Virus record (IMG/VR): IMGVR_UViG_3300027736_000055
Span: 1 to 56,079 of that record
Direction: 5' to 3' (one strand)
DNA length: 56,079 nt
From: a virus
Taxonomy: Duplodnaviria > Caudoviricetes
Below, one piece after another: positions 30,893 through 54,000 of this stretch; position 1 is the stretch's first letter, and each line of letters starts with the position of its first letter. A program made the translations under genes and the position numbers. A model generated the notes under the pieces. That model worked only from the letters and a program-made list of their open reading frames with translations. It did no database searches and was not told where the DNA came from.

Positions 30893-33793
30893 ATGAAGGC
30901 TCAAATATTAAAATTAGCAGGTGTAAAAACTGAGAAAGAGTTCTATCGTAAATTTCCTACGGAAGAAGCTTTTATGGAGAAACATGGTGAAGCTTTACAG
31001 AAAGCTCAACTTGGTGCAAAGATGCCAAGACAGATGCCAGTAAATATTCCTGCTCTTCCAACTTTACAAAATACATTTTCATCAACTCCTGGTTTTGGAG
31101 CTACAGCTAAAGCGTATGGAAAAAATCTAGGTAATGATGTTCTTAAAGGAGTGAATGCTTTGGTTAAACCTGTAGACTTATCTACACCTAGTGGACTTGC
31201 AGGTATGATTGGTGGAATTGGAGCTGGTATAAATACTATAAAACAAACTGAGAAAAACATTGGAGAGCTTGAGAAGTATGGAAAGGTAAGTGATGTTGTA
31301 TTACAAGCTCGTAATACAAAAGCTGCGCCACCTCAAAGACTATATGATTTTCCAAAGTTAGTTACGGGTATGAATCCTAAAGGAACAGGTACTAACTATC
31401 TAGCTGCAAGGAATGGTACAGAGATACAAAATACATACGCTCCTAATGATATATACACTGACTCAGGATATGAGCCATTGAATGATAGTAATGTTAAGCA
31501 ATATAAGAAAGGTGGCAAGATGAGAAAAGCTGAAGGCGGATTTAGTCTTGATCCGTTTGCTGGCATTGCTGGTGGTATTGGTGGATCGTTAGGTTCTGCT
31601 GCAGGTAAAGGTTCTGGTAAAGGTGGACCTGGTTCTACAATTGGTTCTACTCTTGGTGGTATTGCTGGATCATTCATTCCTATTCCAGGCGTAGGTACAG
31701 CGTTAGGTAGTCTTGCTGGTGGATTCATTGGTGGACTATTTGATGCACAAGATCAGAATGAACAACAAGCTGCTCAAGATAAGTTAGATCAAAACATGCA
31801 AGGTTTAGCATTCCAATCAGGAGCTAGAAATATTCAGCAAACCAATAAAGGATTTATGGAAGATGGAGGATGGGTGAGTAATGACTGGCAGCCACAAGTG
31901 ATAACATCATTTGGTGACCATAGTATGAAAGACTTATTAGCACCAGATCCTATGATGAACACATTACGTGCAGGTGGAAACTTGAAGTATTACACTCCTC
32001 CTAGTGAGAGAGCTATGTATACAGGTAGAGCAGAGAATGGTGCACAGATGGCTATGGGTGGAGATTTACAAGTTCATCGTGGAGAAGCTGAAACATTATC
32101 TTATAATCCTTACATGCCTAATAATGGAGAAACAGTAATGTTTAGAGGACCTTCTCATGATAACGGTGGTATGCCTATATCTTATGGACAGAACGGTATA
32201 GAAGTAGAAGGAGGAGAACCAGCTCAAGTTATGCAAGATGGTGGTAAGGCAGATAATTTAGTTGTATTTGGTAATATGGAGATACCAGGATATGGCGCTA
32301 ATGAAATAGGTGACCCTAAAGCTAAAGGTATGAAGTTTAAAAGATATATAGCTGAATTGAGTAAACAAGAAGCTAAGAACAATAAGTATATGGATAAGTC
32401 TCTTGACTTAATTAATAGAGCTGATACTAATGATCCATTCCAACAACTATCATTTAACTCTGGTAAAGCTATGATGCTAGGTTCTCAAATGAACTTAAAG
32501 AGCATAGCTGATAAGAAGAAGAATGCTGCGGCTGTACAAGATGCTATTCTTGAGACTGCTGAACAATACGGAATGGATAGTGCAAAGCTTGCTAAGCAAA
32601 AGATTGCTAAGTTTGGTGGTAAGTTTACATCTTCATCTATGGCGCAAAATGGTATTAATCTAAACCCAATTGCAGAAAATCTTCCTGGATCATATATTCC
32701 TGATTTAAGTAAGCAAATAATGGATGCTAAGTCTGCTGCAAAGATTTCAGAGCAGGCACGTCATGCAAATGATTTTAACATAGCTAACTATATCCCAAGC
32801 AGGTTATTTCATCAAGGCGTACCTCTTAGAGATACTATTGGTGTATTTAATCCAGAATTAGGTCAGTACGAAGTTCCTGAGGTAGAAAAGATAAACCGAA
32901 TTACTGTACCACGTATTAATGATGAACCAACTACTGGTAACTCAATTTTACAAGGCAACATCTTTAATACGCAGAAGCAAATGAAAGCTAAGAATGCGTT
33001 TCCACTTGAAAGTATTCTACAGATGGGATTAACTTCAGCAGCACCGTTCTTAAGAAACAAATACAATGATAGTGTTAGTCCAGAACAACTTGCTCCTGAA
33101 ATGTTAGCAGCAGCTCTTAATCAACAAGAGCCTGTAGGCGCACAGTTATATAACCCAATGCTTACACAAGCTACAAGCATTAGCTTACAAGATCAATTAA
33201 ATGAGGTGACAGCACAAACACGTGCTGCTGAAAGACTTGCTCAAGGTGATCCTTCAGCATTAGCAATGATTGCTTCTCAAGGACAACAAGCTAAGAGTAA
33301 GATATTAGGCGAGCAATTTAGAATGAACCAAGCTGAGAAGCAACGTGTGTCAGAACAAAATGCTGCTGTACTTAATGATGCTCAGATGAAGAACTTAGCA
33401 TTGCTAGATCAGCAAATGGTTAGACAGTTTGAAGGAAGAAGTAAAACTAAAACACAAGCTATCGAGATTGCTAAAAACATTGCTGATAAGATTGCTAAGA
33501 AGAAATCAGAAAACCTTGCAGCTAACGTTTATCAAAACATGTATCCTGATTATAACTTTACACCTTCTGGTACAGCTTACAAGAATCCTTATAGTATGGC
33601 ATCTTTCGGTCCTGGTATGGGAAGAAGCTCTGGACAAGGTATGCTTGGCGGTATACAAATGGGTAATAAAAACTTATTGCCTACAAACTATGATAAGAGA
33701 GGTAACCCCACTCACTATAAACTTATAGGATCAGATGATGATTTAGATGCTAAAAGAAATGGTGGAATCGTAAAAGCATTCAAGAATTTCTAA
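30893..33793 (+). CDS. Cargo / ejection protein with a glycine-zipper membrane segment
   Basis: GSTLGGIAGSFIPIPGVGTALGSLAGGFIGGLF, GPSHDNGG...EVEGGE and Gln-rich helices. Confidence 0.65.
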   Translation: MKAQILKLAGVKTEKEFYRKFPTEEAFMEKHGEALQKAQLGAKMPRQMPVNIPALPTLQNTFSSTPGFGATAKAYGKNLGNDVLKGVNALVKPVDLSTPSGLAGMIGGIGAGINTIKQTEKNIGELEKYGKVSDVVLQARNTKAAPPQRLYDFPKLVTGMNPKGTGTNYLAARNGTEIQNTYAPNDIYTDSGYEPLNDSNVKQYKKGGKMRKAEGGFSLDPFAGIAGGIGGSLGSAAGKGSGKGGPGSTIGSTLGGIAGSFIPIPGVGTALGSLAGGFIGGLFDAQDQNEQQAAQDKLDQNMQGLAFQSGARNIQQTNKGFMEDGGWVSNDWQPQVITSFGDHSMKDLLAPDPMMNTLRAGGNLKYYTPPSERAMYTGRAENGAQMAMGGDLQVHRGEAETLSYNPYMPNNGETVMFRGPSHDNGGMPISYGQNGIEVEGGEPAQVMQDGGKADNLVVFGNMEIPGYGANEIGDPKAKGMKFKRYIAELSKQEAKNNKYMDKSLDLINRADTNDPFQQLSFNSGKAMMLGSQMNLKSIADKKKNAAAVQDAILETAEQYGMDSAKLAKQKIAKFGGKFTSSSMAQNGINLNPIAENLPGSYIPDLSKQIMDAKSAAKISEQARHANDFNIANYIPSRLFHQGVPLRDTIGVFNPELGQYEVPEVEKINRITVPRINDEPTTGNSILQGNIFNTQKQMKAKNAFPLESILQMGLTSAAPFLRNKYNDSVSPEQLAPEMLAAALNQQEPVGAQLYNPMLTQATSISLQDQLNEVTAQTRAAERLAQGDPSALAMIASQGQQAKSKILGEQFRMNQAEKQRVSEQNAAVLNDAQMKNLALLDQQMVRQFEGRSKTKTQAIEIAKNIADKIAKKKSENLAANVYQNMYPDYNFTPSGTAYKNPYSMASFGPGMGRSSGQGMLGGIQMGNKNLLPTNYDKRGNPTHYKLIGSDDDLDAKRNGGIVKAFKNF

Positions 33794-33834
33794 TCAAAAC
33801 GGTTATACAAGATTAACTGATTCTGTTAGTTAGT

Positions 33835-33867
33835 CTTGTGTAATTGATATATTTTAAATTATATTTG
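33835..33867 (+). promoter_or_regulatory. Putative -33/-7 promoter
   Basis: CTTG (33835-33838), 21-nt spacer, TATATTTG (33860-33867). Confidence 0.6.
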
Positions 33868-33883
33868 TTAATTATACTAAGCC

Positions 33884-34501
33884 ATGGCTTCATTCACTGG
33901 ACTAATTTATCTAACAGTTAACTTGATAAATCAAAAAATTTATGTAGGACAAAGTACTATTGATAAGTTATCATATGTAGGAAGTGGTTCTGCTATTAGA
34001 AAAGCTATTAAAAAATATGGCAAAAGTAATTTTAATAGGGTTATATTAAGAAACAATATAACTTGTTTAGAAGAGTTAAACTTTTGGGAAAGTTATTATA
34101 TTAAATTAATAAAATCCAATAATCCTAAAATAGGTTATAATATAACATTAGGAGGAGATAATGGTGGTTGGAAACATACAGAAGAATCAATTGATAAAAT
34201 TAAAAATAGAAGTAATCAATTAGATAATAAAAAACGTATAAGAGAAATTCAAAAAATTGCTACTGAACAAAGATTAGGATCTCATCATAGTAAAGATAGT
34301 AAGATTAAAATGATGAATACTAAGTTTGGAAATGTCCGACATATTGAAATATATAAAGATGATATATTAATGTACACTTGTAATTTTTCAAAAGAAGCTC
34401 AAAACTTGACAGGAATTAAACAATCTGGAATTAAAAATAACTTATGTGGATTGTCTAAATCTGCTGGAGGTTTTATTTTTAAATATAAACAATTAAGCTA
34501 A
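33884..34501 (+). CDS. Free-standing GIY-YIG homing endonuclease (Seg-like, with NUMOD3/NUMOD1-like motifs)
   Basis: GLIY...IYVGQS, YVGSG, WESYYI, GYNITLGG, KHTEES and SAGGFIFKY motifs; very AT-rich. Confidence 0.9.
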   Translation: MASFTGLIYLTVNLINQKIYVGQSTIDKLSYVGSGSAIRKAIKKYGKSNFNRVILRNNITCLEELNFWESYYIKLIKSNNPKIGYNITLGGDNGGWKHTEESIDKIKNRSNQLDNKKRIREIQKIATEQRLGSHHSKDSKIKMMNTKFGNVRHIEIYKDDILMYTCNFSKEAQNLTGIKQSGIKNNLCGLSKSAGGFIFKYKQLS

Positions 34502-37221
34502 TGGCAAGTTTTACCGATGCAATATCGACCTTTAATCCTTACGTGCAAGAGCTCCCCGTAGATGCTATGCTAAAGGTTGGCATGTACAAGCAAGCCAAAT
34601 ACGAAGAAGGTGTTCAAAGAATTCAATCTCAGCTAGATCAGGTATACGGACTTAGTGTTAGTAGACCTGTAGATAAACAATATCTAGAATCAAAACTAGG
34701 ACAGCTAAATAACAATCTTAGATATGTTGCTGCTGGAGACTTTTCTAATCAACAGCTTGTTAACTCTGTTGGTGGTATGGCTGGTGAAATCAGCAAAGAT
34801 AGAAGAATCCAAAACGCTATGGCGTCCACTGCTAATATTACAAAGCAAGGACAAGTGATGGATGCTGCTAGACAGAAGGGTGAGCTAGCTCCAGAGAACG
34901 AAGATCTATATAACGATCATCTTGGTAAGTATCTATCTTCTACAGAAGACGAAGCAAGCTTTGTTAATGGTAGATATATTCCTTACACTAATGTATTCAA
35001 GAAGCTACAAGACGCAGCAGCAGCTGTAGGTATTGATAGTCAAGAAATTCCAACAATCCTTAAAACAGATGCAAGAGGTAACCCGATACCAGATGGTAAA
35101 GGAGGTTTTCAATGGAGTCCTATAATGGCTACAGAGAAGCTAAAAGGTAAAGATGTTGGTAAGATGTTAACAATGTTCAAAGCATCTTTAACTCCTCAAG
35201 ATTATCAACAGCTTGCTATTACAGGACGGTACACATACAAGAATGCTAGCCCTGAGGAATTAACTAGAATGATTGAGAGTGATTACTCTTCTGATAAATC
35301 AAAGTTAACAGCTGTTATCGATGACTTAAAAGTAAGATTAACTAATGAAGAAGGTTCACCTAATGCAGATATAACTAAAGTTACAGATCTTGCAGAACAA
35401 TATAAATATTACAATGAACTAAATGACAATCTAGATAAATCTATATCTTCAGAGATTGAAAATATGACTAAGAACCCTGATGCGTCTAAAGGAAGTTTAT
35501 ATACAAGAAAGTATTTAAACACTATGGCAATGAGCATGAGTGGTGTTGAGAAATCTAAGAGCTATTCAATAAGTCCTAACTATACAATATGGAACGATGA
35601 TAGAAATTTCCAAGCAGCTCAACAAAGAGAACGTAATACTCAATCACGTTGGTGGTACGAGCAAGAGTATAAGGCAAATAAAGATAAAGGAGATGCTTGG
35701 TTAGAACAGTTAAAGATGCATTTAGAGTTTGGTGGGCCACCTCCTGCAGGATATAAACCCAAACAACTTAAGTCTCCTTTTGATGTAGAAGGTGGAGAAG
35801 CTTACGATATAGTTAATCAAAAGAAAAATGAATATAGCGATGTACTAGGTGCTACTAACCAAGCTGCGTATGCATTAACTATAGCAAACTTCAAAAATGC
35901 TCATGCTAAACAACCTGGAGAAAAGGACCAAGCATACAACGAGAGGATTGCTAAGATGATTGCTAATATAGCTAAGGTTAAAGGTGTAGTTATAGATCCT
36001 AACTCTGGAGACATTAATGATTTAACAAATCAGTTTGCTTCAGAGATGGTTACTAAGTGGAAGAAGGGTGGTAACATTCCTTTACAATATAGAGACTTAG
36101 TAAGACAATATGATACAGGTCTTAAAGATGCTACTACATTAAGAGGTCAGCTTGAAGAGTTTGATAGAAAAGCAATTGCTGAAGCTAAGTTACAAGGAGT
36201 AGATGTTAAGTCTAACGCTGAGATTAAGAAGTTAATAAAGCCAGTTACAATTGATACTTATAATCCTTCAACTGGAATACAATCTAAAGTGACATTAACT
36301 GCTGATGATGTAATGGATTGGACATTAATTAATGCAGATCACTTCGAGTTTTTTGGAGGAATGGCTCTAGGTAAAGATCAGGAATCTAATAGACGTGCCG
36401 CTACATTAAGACAACAAGCTAAATTAGGAAATAAGTTTAATGACGTAAGTAACTCTGTTCGTACATCTGATCCAGGCAATGGTCGAAGTATAGTTCATCC
36501 AGGCATTCAAAATGCAGGAGATGTTATGAAGAAAGCTGGAGTTGATAAGAAAACAAAGATATTAGCAAAGCTATATCAAGACGCTGGTTATTCAACACAA
36601 CCGCTAATTACCCCTGTCAATAGAGGAAAGGCTAATAAAGATGATATTGATAATAATCTAATACAGATAGTAGATAACTATGTAGGTGTAGCAGATAATG
36701 CAGAAGCTGTAAAGGCAGCCATCTTATCTCCAGACAGTAAAGTGGGAATGCGAGTTATTCCTAAAGGTGCAGGAATGGGTAATGCCTATCAAATGGTAGT
36801 TACTAAGAGAGACGGTACCACTGAGGAATTAGCTGTTCAAGAATCTGACTATGAATATATGTTTGGACAAGCTCCAAGAAGCTCACCTGTTCCCAAAGTA
36901 CTTAATCAAATCAATGCATTTGGTACAAGTAACTTAGGTGGAACAAATAACCCTGATACATCTTGGTGGGGAAGTGATGATTTTATCAACTTAAAAAATT
37001 ACAAATATGGTATCACTGCTGATCTAGTTCCAGACCCAGGTCTTGATAAAAACAAACTATGGTTCGTCATGAATTTACATGATAAAAAGTCAGGAGATGT
37101 TATTAAACCAGTAACATACCCTAAGCCTTTTTATAAAATAATTGATGGCCAAATGAATACGCAGTTAGATGCATTACCTACAGGTATAAATCCATCTGTC
37201 TTAGAAGGAATAATGAAATAA
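34501..37221 (+). CDS. Cargo / ejection protein preceding the virion RNA polymerase
   Basis: 906 aa, helical; first of three consecutive large genes, as in phi14:2-like phages. Confidence 0.65.
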   Translation: MASFTDAISTFNPYVQELPVDAMLKVGMYKQAKYEEGVQRIQSQLDQVYGLSVSRPVDKQYLESKLGQLNNNLRYVAAGDFSNQQLVNSVGGMAGEISKDRRIQNAMASTANITKQGQVMDAARQKGELAPENEDLYNDHLGKYLSSTEDEASFVNGRYIPYTNVFKKLQDAAAAVGIDSQEIPTILKTDARGNPIPDGKGGFQWSPIMATEKLKGKDVGKMLTMFKASLTPQDYQQLAITGRYTYKNASPEELTRMIESDYSSDKSKLTAVIDDLKVRLTNEEGSPNADITKVTDLAEQYKYYNELNDNLDKSISSEIENMTKNPDASKGSLYTRKYLNTMAMSMSGVEKSKSYSISPNYTIWNDDRNFQAAQQRERNTQSRWWYEQEYKANKDKGDAWLEQLKMHLEFGGPPPAGYKPKQLKSPFDVEGGEAYDIVNQKKNEYSDVLGATNQAAYALTIANFKNAHAKQPGEKDQAYNERIAKMIANIAKVKGVVIDPNSGDINDLTNQFASEMVTKWKKGGNIPLQYRDLVRQYDTGLKDATTLRGQLEEFDRKAIAEAKLQGVDVKSNAEIKKLIKPVTIDTYNPSTGIQSKVTLTADDVMDWTLINADHFEFFGGMALGKDQESNRRAATLRQQAKLGNKFNDVSNSVRTSDPGNGRSIVHPGIQNAGDVMKKAGVDKKTKILAKLYQDAGYSTQPLITPVNRGKANKDDIDNNLIQIVDNYVGVADNAEAVKAAILSPDSKVGMRVIPKGAGMGNAYQMVVTKRDGTTEELAVQESDYEYMFGQAPRSSPVPKVLNQINAFGTSNLGGTNNPDTSWWGSDDFINLKNYKYGITADLVPDPGLDKNKLWFVMNLHDKKSGDVIKPVTYPKPFYKIIDGQMNTQLDALPTGINPSVLEGIMK

Positions 37222-37228
37222 GAAGATA

Positions 37229-40200
37229 ATGGCAGAAGAATTAAAACCAGTTAATCTACCAGGTTACCAACCTACTGAGTATACTCCAGTAGAAACAATG
37301 GTTCCTACTTTAAAGCCTACAGCAAGCTATGATGAGATTTTCAACAATCTTCTAAATCAGTCTGCTCCTAAAGACGCTAGCGCTATGCCTACTGTTTCTT
37401 CAGGAGATATAAACATGTCTGGTAGATATCCTAAATTCTTCACAGGATTAGATAATGAAGAGCTGTATGCTCAGAACCAATCATTTGCAGAAAAAGCATT
37501 TAATGGTGTAACAAAGATGGCAGGTATTGCTACATCTACATTTATCAATGGTACTGTAGGTATAGTTAATGGTATATATGAAACTTCCAAAACTGGTAAG
37601 TTTAATTCCTTCTATAATAACGATCTTAGTAATTCATTAAATGACTTTCAAGAATCATTAAATGATAAGTATGCGTTCTATAAAACAGAACGTGAAAGAA
37701 ATGGTAACTGGTGGGAACCATCTAATCTATTAACAGCAAACTTCTTATTTGATAATATTGTCAGCAACATGGGCTTTGCTCTAGGTGCTGGTGCTGCTGG
37801 TTTGGTTACAGGTGGACTATTAGGCACAGCATTGAAAGGTATAGCTAAGGCTGCTAGACTTACATCACTTGGTGTAGATAGTGCAGCTGCTGCAGAAAGT
37901 ATTGTTTCAGAAGCTGCAGGATTAAGTAATGCTGAAGCATTGTCTGCAGTTAACAGTAGATTGAATAGTTTATGGACTGCTACTAAATCAAAGATAGGCG
38001 CAGGTCTTCTTAAATCAGATAGAGCTATCACAGCTCTTACAGCAACCGCAGGTGAAGCAGGATTGGAAGCATTAAATAATTCCATCCAGTTCAGAACTCA
38101 AATGATCCAAGACTATAAGAAGAATTATGGTGTGGATCCAGAAGGTGCAGACTTAGAAAGGATTAATCAATATTCAGAATCAGTGGGTAACTTTAGCTTT
38201 GCTGCTAATACTGCATTGCTATCTGTAACTAACTATATACAGCTTCCTAAGATATTCTCTTCATCCTTTAAATCTGAGAAGGGTATATTAAATGGTGTTG
38301 CTAGACAAGCAGGTGAAGTTGTTTCTACATTACCTCAGAAAGGTTTTGGTAAGTTAATGTATGGAGGATATAAAGCTGCAAGTGCATTGTTTAGTCCTGC
38401 AGAAGCATTTGAAGAAGGTGCACAGTTCGCTATTCAAACTGGTACACAGAACTACTTTGCTAGAAAAACTAGAGGAGAGAAATCTACAATAGCAGATGAT
38501 GCTATTGGATACGGTATCAAAGAAGCATTGACAAGTGATGAAGGTTTATTAAACATCTTCACTGGTGGTGTATCTGGTGGTCTTATGACTATGGGACTAG
38601 TTGGTAAGAAAGATGGTAAGATAGCGTTTGGACAAACTGGTACATTAGGAGAAAGAGGATTGTTTGGATATGGTGGAGAACAAGCTAGACTACGTGACGA
38701 AGCTATTCCTGCATTACAAAAAACTAGACTTAAGCAAAACTTAATAGCTGCTAATAATAATATAAACACAGCTGAGTCAATTCAAGAAGATAGAAAAGAT
38801 GCAATCCTTGCTAATGATAAACTAGAGTCTAAAGATTTAGAGTTTGATTATGCTCATACATTTATTAGTACACGTTTAAAATACGGTGCTGAAGAAATGG
38901 TATATGAGGAGATTGATGAGATGCGTCAAGAAGCACTCACTGATTTTACTAAGTTAAAGAAAGAAGGTGTTACTGGCCAAGCTGATGATCAACAATCTTT
39001 CTTAGCTCGTTTAGACTTAGTAGAGGCTCAAACAAAACATGCTTCTCAACTTCAAAAGGCACTTGATCTTAAGTATTCTGGATTAGCTAATAAAGAAGGT
39101 AAGCGTCTTTACTCTGATAATACTATTGACAAGCTTGTATATGCTGCAGCTAAAGTTAATGATTACAATCATCGTATACCTCAACTATCTGTAGAGCTAG
39201 GTAAGTATAACATCTCATTAGAGAATATACTTGGAAGAGTAGTTCGTGGAGAAGATGTTACATTAGAAGAAGTTAATAAAGAGATTGCTGATCAACTTGC
39301 TGAGTACCAAAAAACTACACAGTTAACAGATACAGAAATTGCAGATGCTACTCAAGAGGGTATAGACTATTTTGAACTTGGATTACGTAGAAGACAATTT
39401 ATTGGTGAGTATAATGAGATCTTAAAGAACCCAGAAAACTTTGTAACCCCAGAGGAAGAAGATCTTGAGAAGACTACAGAAGAGAAAGCTGCTGAAAAGA
39501 AAGCTGCTGAAGAAGCTGTAAAGGGACCCACTGTTAAAATAAAGACACAGAGAGGTGATACAGAAGTTGAGATAGGTAAAGAATACTTTGTAGGTAACAA
39601 ATCCCAAACACCAAAAGGTAATGCTTTTTATGAGTTTACAAAGTTCACTGTATTAGCAGTTAATGAAGATGGTAATATAAAGGTACAGTTTCCTGATGGC
39701 AAGATGGGTGTTGTAGCTAAAGATGGTTTTGCCACTTACAAAATTGGTAAGGTAGAATCTGTACAAAACAATAAGAAAGCATTATTCTTTATAGAGAATG
39801 CAAACAATGTATATTCATTTAACTTTGGTAAAGCCAAAGGTGGTAAGGTACAAGGTAGACTTGAATATGATGAAGGTAAACTTAACTTTGTATTTAAAAA
39901 TGCTAAAGGTAAGATTGATAGTATTGAGCTACATGGCAAACACTTTGTTGCAAAGAAAGGATTCAAACAAGCTATTGTTGAGAAAGTAGGAACTCTTACA
40001 AAAGCAGAACAAAAGGTTCTTGATGATTTTACTAATGACAAGACTCCAGATCCTTCTGTATTAGAGAAGGTTGCTACTGTTGCAGGTACCATTGAAGTTA
40101 TCTTTGATGAGACTTTAGAAACATTAGAAGATACTAAAGATCTTATTCAACAAAAAACAGAAGAGCTTGGTAAGATTGAGAAACAGTTAGAAGAACTAGG

Positions 40201-43200
40201 TAAGAAGGTAGAAGGACCTAACACTGTTACAAGCAAAACAAAACGATTCAAAGCTACAACACATAGAACATTGCAATCGATCAAGCAACTAACAAAGATG
40301 CGTGATCAGTTACGTAAAGAACTATTCAATCTACAATCAGAACAAGAAGAACTAGAGATACGTCTAGAAGACTTAATTGTCACTGCAGAAGAGTTACAAG
40401 ATCAACCAGGTAACTACAGAGAGTTATATGACTCTATGAGAAAGCAACGTGAAGGTTTAAATGATGCCATCTTAGAAACTGGATTACAGATCAATAAGCT
40501 TTCCAACCTAATTGATATGGTTGAGAATGTTATTGAGAGTGCATATAAAGCTGCTAAGTCATTAATAGAAAAGTTCTTTGATAAGTATCCTGGAGTACCT
40601 TTAGATAGAGACGGCATCATTGCTTTCTTAAACAAGAACTTAGAAGATACTAAAGCTGAGAAAGCTATCACCCCTACGTCTGAAGCAGAGAAGATTCTTC
40701 CATACACTGCTATAGCTGCTGCATTATATGATGACATCAATCAACTAGATGCAGATCTTGCACAGATAGATGAAGCTGATGTTACTCCTAATGAGCCTAT
40801 TGCTAAACAGTTAAGAGATGAGTTACGTGCTCTTCAAGAAGAACTATCTAACTACGAGAAACAACTATCTGCTAAAGAAGGTACACTTAAGAGATTACGT
40901 GAACTATATAAACTACACAAGACAGAAGCTGATAAAGCTAGAGCAGTACAACTTGAGAAAGAGTTAAAGATCAATGAGGTGAAGGAGCAATTCCTTGGAA
41001 CTATTGATAACTCTATTCCCACTACCAATCATGATTCAAACTATGAACCAGATGATAAAAAGAGCTTACTTAATATTATCCGTGCTTCTATTGCTACCAC
41101 TAAAGCATTCCTTAAGAAAGATGAAACTTTAAGAGAGCATCATGTTCGTGCTAATAAGTTTGGTACACGTTTCGAAAGCTTCCGTAACAAAGACAACATA
41201 TACGGTGTACTAGTAAGTAAAGGTAACGGAGAAGATCGTAAAGGTAATGAAGAAGAGTTAGGTATGACAGGATTAATTGACCACATAGGTGGCAATGATC
41301 GTACTGTTGTATTAGTGATGGTGGAAGAGCAGAGCGATGGTTCTTTACTTCCTGTAGATGAGAATGGTAAAGCTATTGTAAGCTCAGAAGATAGAATCAA
41401 CAAAGGTATATACCAAGTACGTCCTGATCCTAAACTTCGTTGGAGTAATGGTGAAACCATGTTCCGTGAAGAAGATAAACCAATAGAAGAAGAAGTTAGA
41501 AAGGTATATGCTAAAGAGATTGATTACATATTAAACAATCCTTCTCTTAATAAATACAAGATAACTCCATCGTTTGGTAATGCTGACTATGTAACTCATC
41601 CAGATCAGATCAATCCAAAGACTAATAAACCTATTAGAAATCGTCAGGCTAAGACAACTCTTAAGGCTGCAGGATTAATTAAGGATGATGAGAAGAATGA
41701 TGATCTTCGTGAGAAGAAGTTAATATACATCCCTACAACTAATGATCGTGTAGAGAAAGGATCTACTAGCTACACTGACGCATTAGGTAGAGTGTTCTTA
41801 GACTTAGGTAATGCTTATGTTAAGTTAAAGAATGCTCAGTATAATAATGCTAAAGCCACGGCTATATATGATGCTGTATTACGTCTTGCTAGTATTGGTA
41901 AGATAAAAGGTAGTACAGAAGCTAACGACTTAGTTTCTTGGTTACGCACTGTAGTATATTGGGGTACTCCTAAAGAGAAGCTTTCTTACAATAGCTTGTT
42001 CTTTGAAGATACAGATGATGGATTAAAGTTATTCATCTCTGGTAAAGGAAGTAACATTCCATTTACACCAACATCTATTAAAGCAAACAAAGATAATATC
42101 ATTGCATTGCTTGAAGAGATGTATCATAATGTTAACTCTCGTCAAGCTACATCTGATTCAGAATATAACAAACCTTACACTGAGATTATAAGTGTATCTG
42201 AAGGTGGTAAGATGGTAACTCGTCAATGGCCTAACTATCAGTCATACTTAATGTCTGATAAGAACCCAGATGGATCTCCTAGAAACATCGATGAGATTCC
42301 TTTAACCACTGAGATTAAACCATTAGAGAACGCTGAGGATTCAAACAGAGAAGGTATATACTTTATCATGGATGATTTAAACATCGATGAATATAGTAAA
42401 GCAATAAATAAGAAACAACCTAAGAAAACATTAGGAACAAAAGCTGCTAAAGAGACAGTAACCACTGCACAGGCAAAAGCTGCCTCTACTGCTGTTGCAT
42501 CTGAGTTTACATTAGATGGTGAGACAGACAACACTGTTTCAATGTTCAAGGGTGAGGTAGAGGTTAAGTTCAAGGTTAATCAAGATGAGTTTTATAATGA
42601 AGATGGTACAGTTAACATTGAGTCTGTTGAAGTAGTTAAAGGACAGAAGTTCTTAAATGACAAATACAACAGTGATAATGATAAGATATTAGCAACTATC
42701 AGAGGATTCATTGCTAGTAAGGTTAAACCTCAAGTGGATGATTATCTATCTGGTCCTATAGAAGAACAAATTGCACCAGCTCCTGAACCCACTGAGTTTG
42801 TATTAGATGGTGAGACATCTAATCTTCTCACTATGTATAAGGGTAAAGTGGTAATCACATTTAAAGTAAATGCTAATGAGTTCTATGATGAGAACGGTAA
42901 TGCTGTTATTGAAGAAGTTGTAATTGTATCAGGATATGATGAGTTACAGAAAAACTTTCCAGAAGCAGATAAAGATGATCTCATTGCAAGAGTTAGAGGA
43001 TTTGTTGCTGGTAAGGTTAAACCTTTTGTAGATGCAGAGTTAGAGAATAAAGAAGACATCCCACAAGAACCTATAGTTAGTTCTGCTACTCCTGATGAGG
43101 TGAGTATCGAAACAACTGATGAGATGGATGATATTGATCCTAACAATCTACCTACCAAGGAATATCGTATGGCAGTATTAAATGCTAACGAAGAGAAACT

Positions 43201-46200
43201 TGAAAGAGAGAACTGGGATGAGATTGAGAGCTGGTTAAAGACAACGTTCCCTAACATTCCTGTATACCGTGTTAAGAGAATGATTCAAGCGTCTAACGGT
43301 AGACAAGCTTGGGGTATGTACAAAGATGGAGCCATCTATGTATATGAGAACGCATTGGCTGGTACAGCATATCACGAGGTGTTTGAAGCTATTTGGGATA
43401 CATTAGTAACTCCTAAAGAGAAGTCACGCATCTATAAAGAAGTTAAAGCTAGAGAAGGTTCTTTCTTTGATCGTGAGACTGCTAAGCAAGTTAAGTATTC
43501 CACTGCTACTAATCATCAGATAAAAGAAGCTCTTGCAGAAGAGTTAATAGACTATGTAAGAAAAGGTCAAAAGCCTGCAGGTCCTGCTAAGTCATTCCTT
43601 GAGAAGATATTTGATGACATCATCAACTTCTTTAAAGAGATGTTCTTTGGTGAGAAGGGTAAGAACAATACAGAGAAGTTATTTGAGAAGATAGGGAATG
43701 GATACTACGCACAGTATAATCCATATCAGTCTAAGTTATCGTTTGCTAAAGCTGGCTTTATTGATATTGACAATGCTATTGCTAATGGTAATGAGGAATA
43801 TCGTTACGCCTTGATGGGCTTTACAGATGTTCAATGGGATGACTTGATGCAACAGATGACATACTTTACAGTATCTAACTTGTTGTGGGATCCTAATAAT
43901 CCTGACAAATCTATCTTTGATATCAACGTTAGAAAGAAGGCTGATCTATACGATAACTTAAAGAGTAACGTATTAGAAGAACTTAAGATGGCACGTGCTA
44001 TCTTGAAGAAAGAGAAAAGCACTCCTGCTACAGAAGCTTCTATCAAGAACTATGAATCATTATATCAGAACATCAAGAACAATTGGGATGCTATTGTAGA
44101 AAGTCACACTGACTATCTAATCCCTTATGAGATTGACTTTGATGAGAATGACAATGCTATCCTTCGTGATGAGAACAACTCTGGTAAGGAAGATTACAAG
44201 GATGCTAACAAGATTGATACATTTAGAAAAGCTAATACAGCTATCAAGTTATTCTTGGCAACTCTTCCTGTTGTAGATGCAGAAGGTATTACCGTGATGT
44301 CCACTGTAAACGGTCCACGCTTACAGCAGTTATCTAAGGTGAAGAACGACATACAGAACGTTGTAGATAAGTCTCGCAAACCTGATGAGATGATTGGTAA
44401 CATCAAGAAGCTTGCTGAACAAAACATCTCTTATAAGCTATTAGCTGAAAGGGTTACGTTTGGTATTAAGAACTTCTCTCTTGATAAGATGACTAATGTA
44501 GGTCAGACTAGTTTAATTACTGGTTTATGGAAGACGTTTGCTAAAACAAACCCTGAAGTTAAATATGTTTACATCCTATCTAATGGTGATGTAGTGATTG
44601 ATGATTCTAACTTCTCTACAGCAACAGATCAATCTATGCTTGACTTAGAAGCAGACTTGACAGTAGCATTGAGAGATCCTAGTAACAAGCTATTCACTTA
44701 CGACGCTAAGAAAAAAGGTGGAGGATACTTTGCAAACGCTGATTCGTTAGGACCAAAGCCTGATACTATTGCTGGAATGATTACATTCTTGAAGAGATTA
44801 GGTATAGAGTTTGATATCAAAGATATAGAGAAACGCCCTCAGTACAAGACTCAGTTCATGGAAGCTGTTGGTGGTATGCATGATAGTTTAAAAGAAGCTA
44901 AGAAGGTAGCAACTATTAGTGGTAGGTCATTAGAACTAAGAGGTAGATTAAGAGAGATAGCTCAGATTGAGGCAATGATTAAGAACCCAGAGTTTGATTC
45001 TACACACTATAACATTAATGGTGAGCTCACTCAAACGTTCATTGGAAGGAATGCACATAGTGACTTGTTTGATATGTTATCACAGATCAAGAATCTTGAT
45101 GAGCTACAAGGTACTCGTTATGAGTATTTAATGAACAATGCTGATAACTTCTCTCAGAACTCAGTTAAGATGGCAGAGATGTTCAATCGTAAGACTGGAA
45201 ACATTACAGTTGGACGTAGTCCAATGTTAATGAAGAATGGTTATTTCGATGGTATCTTTAACTCTGCTAAAGGTAAGAGAGTATCAGCATCTAAGATGGA
45301 CTACAGAGATCGTTTAGTTGCTCAGATAAACCTTGCACTTAAAGGATACTACTTTAACTTAGTTCCAGGTGATGCAGGAATGGAGCACATGTCTAACATG
45401 GGTAACTCTGTAGATCTTACTAAATCAATCTCTGCTCAGTTAGAGATGGCTAAACCTATCTTTAAAGGATACTTTATTGATGAGATAAATGTATCTAGAG
45501 AAGAAAGAAAGATTGTTATTCCTGAAGATAGTGGAAGAAAGAATACAGACTTACGTTTCTTAAAAGGTATCCTTGATAATTATGAAAAAGGTTTGCATGA
45601 TAAGATAGTTGCTGAGGGTAACCGTCAACTTTCTCCAACAGAACTTTATGACAAGTATGCTGATAAGATAGATGCAGCAATAGCTGAATATTTTGAATTT
45701 AGAGCTGCTACATTGTTAGAAACAATGGAAGACTATAACTTAGTTGAGCAGGAATCAGAGAATGTATTCAATGTAGAAAACATTGCATTTGGTGAAGACT
45801 TATCAAAAGATGAACTACAATCTAAACTACATTCACTTGTATTAAACTTTGCTATCAATAATATTGAGATGCATAAGCTTGTATACTCTGATCCTTATTT
45901 CTATAAAGATGAGTTGAAGCGTGTTAAGAACTTTAACTCACCTCACCAAGCATTGGCTGCAGGATCTGCTAATCTAAACACAGCGTTTGATAAAGTTTGG
46001 AATAAGCTTTATAAGACTGATAAGAAAGAAACTGGTGGATATAATAACATAGGATACACTGACTTCTTTAATGATAGTCTTGTATCTGCTACTCTTGAGG
46101 ATGTAAAAGCTGTTGCTGATATCAAAGGTCCTTGGGGAACTTACGGATCATGGGATGAAGGAGACGGTGGTGGAATGATTATGTTCCAAGGTCTACGTAA

Positions 46201-49200
46201 GCTTCGTATTGCTGCTGGTGAATGGGATAGTAACGACGAACGTCAGTATGTTTATGACATAGCTTGGGAGAAGGTTGATAAAGATCTATATGATCAATTA
46301 TCTGTAGAAGAAATAGAAGCATATGATAAAGGTAATCCTAAAGTTCAAAGTGCTTATACTCCTTACAAGCCTGTTGCTAATGGTAACAAAGATGATGGTA
46401 AGAAGTATAACGATATAGTTCTAGACAAGTTTGCATTGTTCCCTATATCATATAGGATAATGAAAGAGTTTAACAAGGAGGCAGATGTCAACTATGTTAA
46501 TCTATATAATAGAATGCAGTCAAGTGGTGTAGACTATGTAGTGTTTGGTAGTGGTAGAAAGGTAGGGTCTAATACAAAACATAAGCTATATGATAAGGAT
46601 GGAAACTTTGTAACTGATTCTTTTGGAACAGTGGAAGATGGTGGTATCAGTATCATACCTTTAACTATCTTGAGCAATCAAACAGACGTTCCTACTAAAG
46701 AAACATCTACTGTAACTACAGGATCTCAAGCGGTTAAGTTAATGACTCTTGATTTAATGGAAGGTGGTGTACCTGTTGACTTCATGCGTGATTCTGACTT
46801 TACTACTAAGTATCAAGAGTGGGTTGACTTAAGTGAAGATGAAAAACTAGAGACATCTAAGTTATATAAAGAGATAAAGAATAACCAAAAGATCGTTGAA
46901 GCCCTTATCAAAAATGGTATGGAGGACACAATGACTATATTGGGTATCACTAAAGAAGATGGCAAGTATGTAATCAAACCTGAGAATCGTACAAAGGCTT
47001 ACGATACATTACGTAAGGAGATGTTGAGGAGAGAGGTTAACAGCAACGTTATTGATTCGTTAGCAGGATTCTTGAATGGTGAAACAATCCTAGAAGCTAC
47101 ACCTGCTTACAGACAAATCAAGAACATCTTATACTCTATTGCTGACAAGAACATTGTATCTCGTACAATCACTGGAAGTAAGAAAGTACAGATGCCTTCT
47201 ACGCTATTAGAAACTCTACGTCCTAAGGAAGTAACTATCAATGGTAAGACTGGATATACATCAGACTACTTAAAGTTCTATGATCATCCTGGTCCTGACG
47301 GTAACCCTATTCGCGTATGTGAAATAGCAGTTAGAAGATGGTTTAAATCTGATAAGACAGATGATGAACTAATGGACTACTTCAATAACACTGAAGAAGG
47401 AAAAGCTCAACTAGCTGCTATCACTGGTATTGGATTCCGTATCCCTTCACAGAAGCAGAACTCTATTGACGTATTTAGAATAGCTAAGTTCCTACCTGAA
47501 GAGATGGGTGACGTAGTTATTATTCCTTCAGCATTAGTTAGAAAAGTAGGATCTGACTTTGACATAGATGCATTGTCTATGTACTTTAAGAACTTACGTA
47601 GAGGTAAGAATGGATATCCTGAAGTAATTAAATATTTAACTGCTGACAACTCTACAGTTCAAGAAAGATATTACAACTGGGTGATTGATAATGCTGATAA
47701 AGATGTAAGTAAATACATTCGGTTCTTAGCTAAAGGCGAAGTTGCTAAACTAAGAGAGCAGTTCAAAGAACAATTTAACAGCTTAAGCGAGAGCTATAAA
47801 ACTGCTGTAGAAGAATCAAAAGCTTTAAACTATGAAGAACTATTAGATAGCTACAAGTCTATTAAGCAAAAAATTAATGTTGCTCAAGATGGTTACATGG
47901 TAGAACTATTTGCACAAGGTTCTAAAATATTTAGAAAGCTAAGTGATGATCTTAAAGATAAAGTCTTTGAATTAAAGAAAGAGATGTATATGCTAAACAT
48001 TAACGGTCCTGAAGAAATCAGACGTTATTTAGCACTAGCTACAATCTTATCTAACCAATATTCTACATCTGCTCAAGATAAGAAGATATTGAACGATATG
48101 AGTTCCATATATCAAGAGGAGCTAAGAGTATTAGGTGCCACTCAAGAAGAGATTGATAAAGCAACTGCTGAAGCTCTTGCTGCATTCAGAGAAAACAAAT
48201 CAGCTTCTATCAAAGCTATTGGAGAAATGGTAGCTAATTTCAAACTAAATGAAGTCATACCACAACAAGAAGAACTCATCAATGCTCAGAAACTAGAGTT
48301 TGCTACAGAACTAGCAGAAGCTTCTGAATTAGATTCATTATCTAAGTTTGAGAGTTATCCTATTGAGATGCAGAATACTAAGAAGGCGTTACAGAATGCA
48401 TACATTCAGTCTTCTGAGAACTTAGTATCATCTGAAGAGAACTATGAGCAGTTAATTAAACCTAACTCTGCTGATGTATTAATCAAGTTAACAAATGAGT
48501 TGTTATCAGATAGAGGTAAGGTTAAACCAGATTATTCTAAGGTGGATACAATGTTAGTGTTAGAAGACATGGCACGTATCAGATACAACTTAGTTACTGG
48601 TAAACGATTAATTGGTATTGCAGCCCAAGCTCAAACTAACCACTCATTAAATCAACGTTTGTTATTCACTGTAGATCCTTCTCGTAGAGATAGGATTCCA
48701 GTAGAAGATAGAAAGTGGATGGGTGATGCTGAGATTAAGTTTAAGAAGTTTAACAGTGTGTTTGTTAATGGTGAGAAGAGATCTACATTATCCATGATTA
48801 AGGATGCTAATAATGACCTATACATCTCTGATGTTAATGGTATAATTATTGACGGCTCTGTGGATATTTCTAAGGATGACTGGTTGATGCAGATGGGTGC
48901 TACTCCTCAAACGATAGCTACATATCTATTCTTAATCAAAGAAGGAGTTCCTGTAAAAGATGTAGTTTATTTCATGAGTCAACCTATCATCCGTGACTAC
49001 CTAACAAAGTTAGAGAGTAAAGGATACTCGTACTTATTTATTGAGGACTATGTTGAGGAGTTAGAAGACTCAACCAATTATAATAAGAAGTCTAGTGCAG
49101 TGGTTAATAGTATTCCTTCTTTTGATAAGCTTCAAGAGATGATTAGAAAGGATAAGGATAAGTTAACTAATGATGAAGCAGCAATGCAACGTTTCATGTT

Positions 49201-51075: not shown

Positions 51076-54000
51076 ATGAGCTGTAAAGATACACAAAAGT
51101 TTAGAACATCTGAAGCATCCACTAAGGCAGCAATGCGTACACAGGGTGCTATAGATGGCTTTTTGAATATACTCGACTTGGGTTTATTTAGAACACTTAA
51201 TGGTAAGTGGTCTAGAGATGCTAAGGAAAACTTTGATGTACAGGAAATGTTATTCTCTGAAGAGAATAATGGTACAAAGGCTAGGGCTAACAAACCTGCA
51301 TTCAAACAAATTGATAATGCTAAAGGTATTTATTATCAAGAAGACAGTATAGGTCAATCGATTGCAGATGATCAAACAATAGCTAATGTAAAGAAAGCTA
51401 TTGAGCAGATGGAAGTGTCGTTAATGACTCTAGCTGACTACGCAAAGAACTCTGACATAGACACTACAAGTATCAATGGTCTTGCTGACTTAACTAAAAA
51501 CATTATTGCAATTGCAGAAGGTAAAGAAGCAGAAGCACTCACTGAAGAGATGGTTCACGTTTCTACAGCTATTCTTGAGCAAGTTGATCCTAGACTTGTC
51601 ACTGAGATGATATCTAAGATAGATAGATTCAAGATATACAAAATAGTATTCGAACAGTATAAGAACAATCCCAAGTATCAACTTGAGAACGGAAAGCCTA
51701 ACATCCGTAAGATCAAGAAGGAAGCCGTTGATAAGTTAATAGCAGAAGTTATTATTAATAACTCATCTGATATTGAGCAGTTCCCAGAACTACAAGCTGA
51801 AGAAAACATATCTACAATCAGAAGATTTTGGAATGCCATCTTAGACTTATTCAGAAGACAGTATAAGAAGAGTGACATCTCTCTGTTTCAGAAAACTGCT
51901 GGAAGAATTATGGAAGGTGTGGGTACTGCTGATCAGATACAAGGTGGAGGCATATACTTACAACAGAGTACAGAACCAGTTAATAAATTATATGATACGT
52001 TAAGAGACTATGACAAACGTATTGTATTATCTCCTGCAACTTCTACTGACAAACGTTTTTATACTTTTGATGGAACACGTATATTAAAGAGTGTTACAGA
52101 GAAGGTTAAAGGTATGATGAAGTGGGATACCACTGAGTATCAACAAAAGATATACGATCAAATGAAGGAGTGGGGTATTGCTGGACACACATATGTTGAG
52201 CAGTATCTTAATTCAGCATTGATTGATGAGAATGGATTTGCTAGACCTGAACCACTAGCTGTTGATATAGATACAGAGCTACCTGAAAAAGTACAAGTTG
52301 TATTAAACTCCTACCTAAAAGATCTTGTAAACTCTTATGCTCCAGGTACAAGATTCATCACAGAAACTAAGATGGTGAATACAAAACCTAAGGGTATGAT
52401 AGCATCTACTATTGACTTGATAGCAATCGAACCTAATGATACTACAGGAGTTAAGGTGGATGTCTATGACTGGAAGTTTACTTCTATCAATAAAGAGAAA
52501 GAAGAAGATGTGCCTTGGTACAAACAAAAAGAATGGAAGTCTCAGATGGGTGAGTATGCACAGATGTTATATAACATTGGTATAAAGCCTAATCAGATTA
52601 GAAGAGCTAGGATGATTCCTTTCTCAGTGAAGTATGATCCTACAGTGAAGGGAGACTGGTCATCTGAACTAAAGCTAACTGCTGTAGAGATTGGTAAGTT
52701 TGATAACGTTAAAGAGAGTAAGTTATATCTATTACCTGTACCACTTGACTTAGAATCAAGCGGTAACAAACTTGTAGATGAACTTGTTAGATCATTAAAA
52801 CAACAGTATACTAAGTTACAGAAAAGTAAAGTGGAGACTGCTGATAAACCAGCTAAGAAGTTACAACTAAAACAACTAGCTAAGGCTATCCGTAAGTTAC
52901 AGATGACATTAAACTTTGATCCTATATCAAACGTAATGTTCACCTTCTTAAACAATGCAGCAAAGGTCTATAAGACATTTGAGGATATTGATTATGATAA
53001 CATGACTGCTAAGGATATAGAAGTGAAGCTAGGAGAGTTAATTAAGTTTAAAGCCACAGCATCTAAGTTCATTGACATAGATAAAATATTTACATCTATG
53101 TTTGATGAGAAGGAGATGACTTCTGAAGAAAAGAATATATTAACTAATCTAGAAAAACGTTCTGCTTCTGTAAAACGTATGATAGCTAAGTTCAATGTTC
53201 TTCAAGAAGATTATATTGTTCACATAGCATTGAAGACAGGGTTGTCAGAAGAAGACGTACGTTCTGCAGAGAAGCCTATTACATCTTTTATTGAGAAGAA
53301 CTTAATCGAAGCATCTAAGTTATCGTCATCTCTTATAAAGCTAGCTACTAACTTAATGCTTAAGTCTAGAAGTCTTGCTACCAAGAAAGCTAGTGATAAG
53401 ATAGATGAGTACTTTGTAAAGCTTGCTGCATTAGAAACAGAAGCTGCTAAGATGGGTAAGAGTGCATTTGATATGATTGGTAAAGTAGATGATGGTAAAC
53501 TAAGCTTTGTTAAAAAGATTAGTAAGAAGTTCTACGAAAGCTATGATAAAGCTATCAATGATAAGGATAAAGACTTCTTCTTAAAGAACATGGACGTAGA
53601 AGAGTTCAAGAGAAAGGCTAAGGAGATAATTGAAAAGAGTGATGCTGAGCTAGAAAATGTATTGTTCTCTAGTGATCCAGAAGTTAATGATACAGAGCGT
53701 GACTATCAAAAGAAACAAGTACGTAGCTCATTAGATATTGATGCTAAAGACTTTAATGGTTATCAATCTTATTCTTTCCAAGCATTGTTTAAAGAAACAA
53801 TGAAACAAGAAAACTTCTTGTCAGACGACTATAAAGAGATGTCTAAGAATGCTGCAGCTCTTGATGTGTGGAAGTTCTTTACACAATTGAATGAGCATGC
53901 TCGTAAGATGGGATATCTAAATGATAAGGGTAACTCTTTCTTCCCATTAATTGAAGCTGCGTTTGTTCAAAAGGTTTCTCAAACAGGAGACGCAATTGGA

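Follow-up and report, generated by a model that had tools for sequence, protein, structure and literature searches.

We begin by considering the described systems in which a homing endonuclease enters a protein gene and the gene is kept by replacement of one of its parts. The WHO elements of Torulaspora yeasts have a LAGLIDADG endonuclease beside FBA1, and the 3' half of FBA1 is replaced by a resistant allelic variant; they are called a third category of homing element, and their authors consider splicing-avoiding homing by partial host-gene replacement to be rare and, for nuclear genomes, unique (bioRxiv 10.64898/2026.08.13.744650). In fungal mitochondria, mobile open reading frames (mORFs) carry a foreign C-terminus in atp6 of Allomyces macrogynus and in atp6, atp9, cox2 and nad3 of Glomus (PMC3630166), and an N-terminal duplication through intron mobility is mentioned for Tremella (PMC8393795). 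The seg and mob genes of T4-like phages are free-standing GIY-YIG or HNH genes that cleave a neighbouring gene and co-convert flanking markers, a process called "intronless homing" (PMC2988022). The locus we consider here lies in a viral genome (Duplodnaviria; Caudoviricetes; IMG/VR record IMGVR_UViG_3300027736_000055, positions 1 to 56,079); the whole stretch of 56,079 nucleotides (nt) is referred to as the window. In it a GIY-YIG endonuclease gene stands directly upstream of a phage gene, which we call the host gene, and the arrangement resembles that of a homing element inserted into the first codons of the host gene.

The endonuclease open reading frame (ORF) encodes 205 amino acids (aa) and opens with ATG GCT TCA TTC ACT GGA, while the host gene encodes 906 aa and opens with ATG GCA AGT TTT ACC GAT. 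Both proteins begin with MASFT, and the four codons after the ATG are all synonymously different, including TCA against AGT. The stop codon of the first ORF is joined to the start codon of the second in the sequence TAATG; the duplication, the complete synonymous difference and the junction are as the initial annotation of this DNA had described them. Among the 65 ATG-initiated ORFs of at least 60 aa in the six frames of the window, these two form the only pair with the same first five residues, so the match goes beyond chance. The G+C content of the endonuclease gene is 24%, compared with 36-38% for the flanking genes.

We read this locus, with a probability of about 0.75, as a free-standing GIY-YIG homing cassette, with neither intron nor intein, whose place is among the opening codons of a conserved phage gene. 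It consists of endonuclease codons 6 to 205, the stop codon, and a new start with about seven host-gene codons in a different spelling. The endonuclease would be read from the upstream region, the start codon and the first five codons of the host gene, the native start would persist only as the N-terminal tail of the endonuclease, and the host gene would be re-initiated at the stop/start overlap from the replacement copy. The cassette would spread when empty alleles are cleaved in mixed infections and repair is copied from the occupied allele, while an occupied allele would be shielded by its patch with the other spelling; the cleavage, the position of the cut and the immunity given by the patch are what we infer from the sequences. 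The features are collected in Table 1.

Table 1. Features of the endonuclease cassette and the host gene, in positions of the window
Feature	Position	Strand	Remark
Conserved upstream block	33850..33872	+	TAnnTTTG box at 33860-33867, ending 16 nt before the first ATG; presumed promoter of the endonuclease
Left copy, captured native start (ATG, four codons and G)	33884..33899	+	First 16 nt of the endonuclease ORF; assigned in the window by analogy
GIY-YIG homing endonuclease gene, 205 aa	33884..34501	+	Assigned from PHROG 314, predicted fold and composition
TAATG stop/start overlap	34499..34503	+	Host-gene translation would here be coupled to that of the endonuclease
Right copy or replacement patch, differently coded host-gene start	34501..34524	+	Putative boundary in the window, no near-isogenic empty allele having been found
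Host gene, 906-aa protein	34501..37221	+	About 110 N-terminal aa conserved, remainder very variable; no Pfam or PHROG family

As compared with the WHO elements, the phage cassette would likewise home without an intron or intein, the displaced native part remains in place, and the target region is unusually variable, as in an arms race. The phage cassette differs in replacing only about 21-24 nt at the 5' end where the WHO elements replace the 3' half, in that the displaced part is apparently reused as the start of the endonuclease, with the promoter taken and the host gene coupled behind the endonuclease, and in being a GIY-YIG enzyme of a phage genome instead of a LAGLIDADG enzyme with a zinc finger (bioRxiv 10.64898/2026.08.13.744650). 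It therefore stands outside the WHO family proper, which is defined by LAGLIDADG and zinc finger, relationship to HO and FBA1 as host, and seems to work alike. With the mORFs the locus shares an endonuclease ORF (GIY-YIG in atp9) inside a protein gene with a duplicated, divergent gene end whose changes are largely synonymous; the mORFs, however, occupy the 3' end and their native copy decays downstream, whereas the phage cassette is at the 5' end and the native copy joins the endonuclease (PMC3630166). With the T4 seg and mob genes it shares the free-standing endonuclease and the coupling to a neighbour by overlapping stop and start codons. The start codon of a T4 endonuclease gene overlaps the stop codon of the host gene before it, and this overlap is taken to keep endonuclease synthesis low, whereas here the order is reversed and it is the host gene that is coupled; a duplicated gene end is not among the features described there for seg and mob (PMC2988022).

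The yeast WHO elements and the fungal mitochondrial mORFs already show the principle, splicing-free homing in which part of a gene is replaced. The phage case, judged by its layout, is probably a 5'-end GIY-YIG variant of it with one feature more: the endonuclease makes use of both the displaced start and the promoter, and the coupled gene is the host gene. Of the splicing-free homing proposed in the initial annotation, the core layout is borne out by the three allele pairs considered below, and in principle it is not new, since the WHO elements and the mORFs do the same at 3' ends. No comparable arrangement in phages or crAss-like phages was found in the full-text literature, a coverage that leaves subscription journals outside; a paper on crAss phages goes no further than listing endonuclease ORFs. 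In Aeromonas phage Aeh1, mobE is reportedly inserted in nrdA (genes-in-pieces), as a free-standing endonuclease in a coding region without an intron. There nrdA is said to exist as two functional halves; here nothing is split off, since the cassette supplies the five displaced codons anew.

To place the window among its relatives, we use the host gene. Profile scans of IMG/VR with the host gene gave 57 loci and then the best 80 of 272 relatives, and together with the window, L154, L155 and two metagenome loci a total of 142 loci were compared. Over the interval from -60 to +330 these represent 101 distinct alleles, 92 empty and 9 occupied; an allele is counted as "empty" if it has no ORF of 120-400 aa whose end falls a few bases or less from the host-gene start. 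All alleles, including those without an endonuclease, start with MAS(F/Y/W)TD or a near variant of it, and the first approximately 110 residues are conserved.

The evidence that carries our reading comes from pairs of empty and occupied alleles. In the first pair (L098, empty; L100, occupied), all 85 of the upstream bases available are identical (85/85), and the first 14 nt of the L100 endonuclease ORF are identical to the L098 host-gene start. The restored start of L100, on the other hand, reads TTG GCT AGC TTT ACA GAT ACG against ATG GCA AGT TTT ACT GAC CAA in L098, with 8 differences in the first 24 nt and only 3 in the 306 nt beyond (p 3e-8). In the second set (L173 and L200, empty; L211, occupied), the upstream DNA is identical at 100/100 positions and the left copy at 16/16, including the rare TGG GCA (MASWA), and the right copy, ATG AGC AGC TGG GCA GAC, differs from L173 and L200 at 7-8 of 24 nt against 26-30 of 306. 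The third pair (L111, empty; L109, occupied) is 90% identical upstream and again 16/16 in the left copy; in the right copy GGT TCA replaces GCA AGT, all five differences falling at nt 5-9. Here 5/24 against 39/306 is no significant excess, which the other two pairs do show.

More generally, a reasonably close empty relative is available for five occupied alleles; compared with the start of that relative, their left copies show 1, 2, 0, 1 and 0 differences in 16 nt and their right copies 4, 6, 5, 6 and 6. Since the left copy stays close to the relative's start and the right copy does not, it is the left copy that belongs to the lineage itself, and the right copy is of foreign origin. The N-terminus of the endonuclease follows the lineage variants of the host start, being MASWA in L211 and MASY in L107. 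The element carries an allelic variant of the segment it displaces, which restores the host gene with its peptide kept. The insertion within the 5' end of the host gene, the reuse of the upstream region and start, and the restart from a differently coded copy, all put forward in the initial annotation, are supported by these three sets. For the window itself the case is supported by analogy with these pairs of related phages. The empty layout that had been predicted, with the upstream block running straight into the host gene, is seen in L085/L156: of the empty alleles with the same upstream block as the window it is the nearest, and it has ATGGCTTCATTTACAGAT directly after the block. A metagenome scan returned an occupied near-copy of the window (L151, 94% identical) and two distant empty alleles only, and the contigs of four sequencing runs contain occupied near-copies of the window as well as, in samples of the same kinds, empty alleles of other relatives (X3 has a joint from 33893 to 34512, and X5 a loose end); window positions that these runs leave uncovered carry no information.

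The upstream block occurs once in the window, and each of the 62 loci examined has a TAnnTTTG box no more than 80 nt before the first ATG. The box lies 14-17 nt before the first ATG in 7/7 occupied alleles, and its modal distance in empty alleles is 14-15 nt. We read TAnnTTTG as a putative -7 promoter element of Bacteroidota, and the box would presumably drive transcription of the endonuclease. At the other end, the endonuclease stop overlaps the host-gene start or ends 1-2 nt before it in all nine distinct occupied alleles, an arrangement in which host-gene translation may be expected to be coupled to that of the endonuclease.

The next question is what distinguishes the replacement patch. 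In 7/7 alleles the right copy differs from the left at 3-7 of 16 nt, whether the left copy is of the TCA type or of the AGT type; the summed difference of 38 over these alleles is larger than with right copies drawn at random from empty alleles, with a permutation p of 0.0008 (L154 and L155, in which the left copy is drifted or shorter, were not included). A TTG start is present in 3/9 occupied and 0/92 empty alleles, and a codon 2 other than Ala in 3/9 and 1/92. The serine codon 3 is of particular use, as the switch between TCN and AGY has no single synonymous step. On the tree of nt 25-330 with 101 alleles its class changes 13 times, whereas four further Ser codons that are conserved change 0, 1, 0 and 0 times, and on a careful tree of 54 alleles 11 times against 0, 1, 0 and 0. 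Patches are also present between empty alleles: L091 differs from L092 and L138 at 9-10 of the first 24 nt and at 6-8 of the next 306. Three other near-identical pairs in the first set of loci are without a patch, and in the larger set 17 of 24 close pairs have fewer than three differences in the first 24 nt. Since most close pairs have no patch, the pattern is one of discrete overwriting of about 21-24 nt and there is no general mutational hot spot. The right copies still encode MASFTD-like peptides despite the heavy nucleotide change, which speaks for their translation. As a cut site, a CNNNG motif located at the start codon was considered and dropped, the base before the ATG being variable among empty alleles.

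A fuller form of our reading can be given, though we would put it at somewhat below an even chance. The element would be the phage counterpart of the third category of homing elements: it would home into the first seven codons, make the displaced start into its own N-terminus, take the promoter and restore the gene with a resistant spelling, and an arms race would have overwritten these approximately 24 nt repeatedly. The possible signs of such a race are the 13 TCN/AGY switches, the TTG starts, the changes of codon 2 from Ala to Gly or from Ala to Ser, and the swaps of nuclease domains on a common DNA-binding half; the recoded empty alleles could then be footprints of loss or of vaccination.

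Alternatively, the anatomy may be the same and the two copies differ for another reason. Identical direct repeats of 16 nt flanking about 600 nt would recombine the element out, such that only dissimilar repeats persist and the patch has nothing to do with cleavage immunity. This explanation is possible but, in our view, less likely than not. That the right copy departs from the left in every one of the seven alleles, whatever the type of the left, suits it well, and the AGT-type starts that were themselves invaded fit a rule of "be different" better than a rule that AGY is immune. The changes, however, go beyond those needed to break a repeat, with 4/8 differences between L098 and L100 at nt 18-21, outside the 16-nt repeat, and a patch between L091 and L092 that reaches nt 22. 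The changes beyond the repeat in L098/L100 favour immunity or a donor tract without settling the matter, and the "be different" pattern fits cleavage immunity and also selection against identical direct repeats; the two ideas are compatible with each other. Rather than a new design, the patch is best seen as an allelic variant unlike the one present in the recipient, whichever that was.

Several observations weigh against the cassette or against the immunity of its patch. The replacement spelling, which the initial annotation took as particular to occupied alleles, is also seen in some empty ones, an outcome that the annotation itself had named as a refutation and that applies in part: an AGY serine codon is present in 7/9 occupied right copies and in 12/92 empty alleles, among them L158, the closest empty relative of L144/L163, and the Fisher p of 8e-5 for this excess, like the other allele statistics, treats the alleles as independent, which they are not, and ignores shared ancestry. 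The left copies of L100 and L109 have AGT; AGY-type starts have therefore been invaded themselves, and AGY alone gives no general immunity. In the pair of L158 and L163, the left copy does not equal the start of the empty relative (5/16 nt differ); this left copy seems to have arrived with an exchanged endonuclease segment, considered below. A near-isogenic empty allele of the window was found neither in the metagenome scan nor in the contigs of the four runs. Among 18 aligned endonuclease sequences no invariant Arg was found that would correspond to the canonical active-site Arg of GIY-YIG enzymes. Finally, a second TAnnTTTG box lies inside the endonuclease gene (34321-34328), at the same ORF position in 5/8 occupied alleles and 172-178 nt before the host-gene start; it coincides with a conserved T-K-F-G peptide and could be the host gene's own promoter, or merely coding sequence.

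We turn our attention to the mobility of the element. The close relatives of the endonuclease that could be placed all sit directly upstream of the host gene (the window, L151, L100, L107, L109, L141, L143/L154, L144/L163, and L211 with three copies of it). A search of IMG/VR with a DNA pattern for the C-terminal motif of the endonuclease gave nine matches, of which six are close relatives, all directly upstream of the host gene, two are due to chance, and one is an HNH-type enzyme elsewhere that shares the motif only. A degenerate profile of the endonuclease had retrieved from IMG/VR, among the matches listed, generic GIY-YIG genes only, and was replaced by this specific pattern and by the host-gene profiles. 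In L155 the same site is taken by a second type of endonuclease, in which a long linker joins a canonical GIY-YIG domain to the C-terminal half found in the first type; it starts with MAFIY, and its junction to the host gene reads TAATG GCG AGT. A single site is thus either occupied or empty among related phages, in 9 and 92 distinct alleles.

It can be supposed that the endonuclease gene is nevertheless fixed and immobile, domesticated and vertically inherited, with the duplicated start as an old and drifted relic. The ORFs are indeed intact, with a constant length of 204-206 aa, and the ratio of nonsynonymous to synonymous substitution rates (dN/dS) is 0.18-0.58 over 21 pairs among seven endonuclease genes. 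The endonuclease is under purifying selection and its function is kept, and values below 1 would suit a domesticated function too; in addition, the left copy of L154 has drifted to MPDFN. This explanation is nonetheless improbable in our view. The gene is present and absent in phages whose upstream DNA is identical at 85/85 and 100/100 positions, and on the tree of nt 25-330 nine changes of occupancy are needed for the nine occupied alleles. Furthermore, the window and L144/L163 share nt 7-375 of the endonuclease gene with one mismatch, whereas outside this segment they are 68% identical upstream, 74% in the other half of the endonuclease and 68% in the host gene. A near-identical segment of 365 nt between flanks that are only about 68% identical means that the nuclease-domain module was exchanged recently, and the endonuclease DNA has thus undergone recent horizontal exchange. 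In contigs of runs X3 and X4, a related sequence skips 387 nt of the endonuclease gene (34060-34448 of the window), with 3 other letters between; this locus may there hold a decaying endonuclease left by a deletion, as far as sides of 42 nt and a likeness set at 88 allow.

The protein itself is assigned to homing endonucleases by several comparisons. It matches PHROG 314 ("homing endonuclease") with an E of 2e-23, scores 22.5 bits with Pfam SegE_GIY-YIG (under the cut-off of 25), and as a profile it matches the I-TevI catalytic domain (1LN0) with an E of 0.019. The top Foldseek matches of its AlphaFold model (pLDDT 80) are the I-TevI catalytic domain structures 1MK0 and 1LN0 (probability 1.00, target TM 0.61-0.66), and a link to I-HmuI (1U3E) is also returned with an E of 0.03. 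The endonuclease has a GIY-YIG catalytic domain, with an I-TevI-like fold in the model. Y9, Y20, G22, E69 and N86 are invariant in the alignment of 18 sequences, and the GYN of the endonuclease aligns with the GYN of I-TevI. The putative C-terminal DNA-binding module reaches 16.5 bits with Pfam I-HmuI_NUMOD-like, under the cut-off of 27. The same C-terminal half is also fused to a different nuclease domain in L155 and in P0046-P0053, whose nuclease domain is canonical and I-TevI-like; P0053 starts with MASFT and the others with MAC or MAF, and the only one that could be placed, P0050, is L155 and shares the locus. Of the 45 database homologues closest to the endonuclease, 42 start with MAS(F/Y) and 32 with MASFT. 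At an unrelated locus, an HNH-type endonuclease (L150:1519-2109) has the same C-terminal motif as the GIY-YIG family, NNLSGLSKSAGGF; as HNH and GIY-YIG enzymes end in the same motif, the putative DNA-binding module would be common to both nuclease families.

The two weakest explanations can be dealt with briefly. That MASFT is shared by chance, or is the native start of the endonuclease family, can draw on the shortness of a five-residue match and is next to incredible, as the endonuclease start tracks the lineage variants of the host gene, a protein of a different nuclease-domain type (P0053) also starts with MASFT, and 92 empty alleles have the host start with no endonuclease. An endonuclease within a group I intron or intein removed by splicing would be no surprise in a phage, where intron-encoded GIY-YIG endonucleases are common, and is about equally hard to believe here, since no RNA family, group I introns included, was matched by Rfam in 33000-35500 at E up to 1, the spacer from stop to start is 0-2 nt in 9/9 alleles, and the endonuclease ORF has its own stop and a frame different from that of the host gene; the lack of an intron ribozyme had been correctly anticipated.

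The extent of the recoding has to be revised. In the initial annotation it was continued over the next 30 codons or so, on account of their many C/G-ending codons, and was tied to the endonuclease. The richness itself is real, with a third-position G+C (GC3) of 0.47 in codons 2-35 of the host gene, which averages 0.23 as a whole; among stretches of 34 codons this is the 99.4th percentile. The link to the endonuclease fails, as the same codons of 55 empty alleles have a mean of 0.37 against 0.19-0.23 further on. The patch itself stops at about nt 21-24, high GC3 is a trait of the whole family, and across the GC3-rich region L098 has the same sequence as L100. In the window the region corresponds to 34504-34605, where third-position G+C reaches about double the value found elsewhere in the gene, throughout the family and with or without the endonuclease.

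If our reading is true, a phage example with a different nuclease family would mean that the solution of partial replacement evolved independently, and that it works at the 5' end of a gene, where the element also gains the expression signals of the host gene. The layout resembles the engineered "home-and-rescue" gene drives, which carry a recoded piece of an essential gene. Natural alleles that are empty, occupied and recoded-empty with identical flanks (L098/L100, L173/L211, L091/L092) make the target site, the immunity and the arms race directly testable. For annotation, short duplicated gene starts beside endonuclease genes would mark such events, and the true host-gene start in some alleles would be a TTG just downstream of the endonuclease stop.

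The host gene lies within a block of virion genes (terminase, portal and head PHROGs). Neither its protein nor the preceding 966-aa ORF has a Pfam or PHROG family. A DNA search of the phage collection with 33300-35300 of the window gave no match, a scan of species genomes found no relative and so gave no clue to the host of the phage, and tblastn of the host protein against the phage collection gave a single partial match, to Leptolyngbya phage Lbo-JY46. The best matches of the major head protein in that collection are the same phage (25% identity) and Flavobacterium FpV4-type phages (21%); membership of the window phage in the crAss-like group, as it had been placed at the outset, is not established. 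The window and L151 are set apart by small insertions and a cluster of changes at 33740-33760, in the last 20 or so codons of the upstream 966-aa gene. The host gene directly precedes an ORF of 4614 aa (37229-51073), which is directly followed by one of 1620 aa (51076-55938); the only match of the first 1590 residues of the 4614-aa ORF is phrog_32390, of unknown function (E 1e-17), and the ORF could be a virion RNA polymerase such as crAss-like phages have. Near-identical host genes turn abruptly unrelated toward the C-terminus, L098 and L100 from about nt 1640 and L091 and L092 from about nt 2670, which suggests recombination breakpoints inside a very variable host protein.

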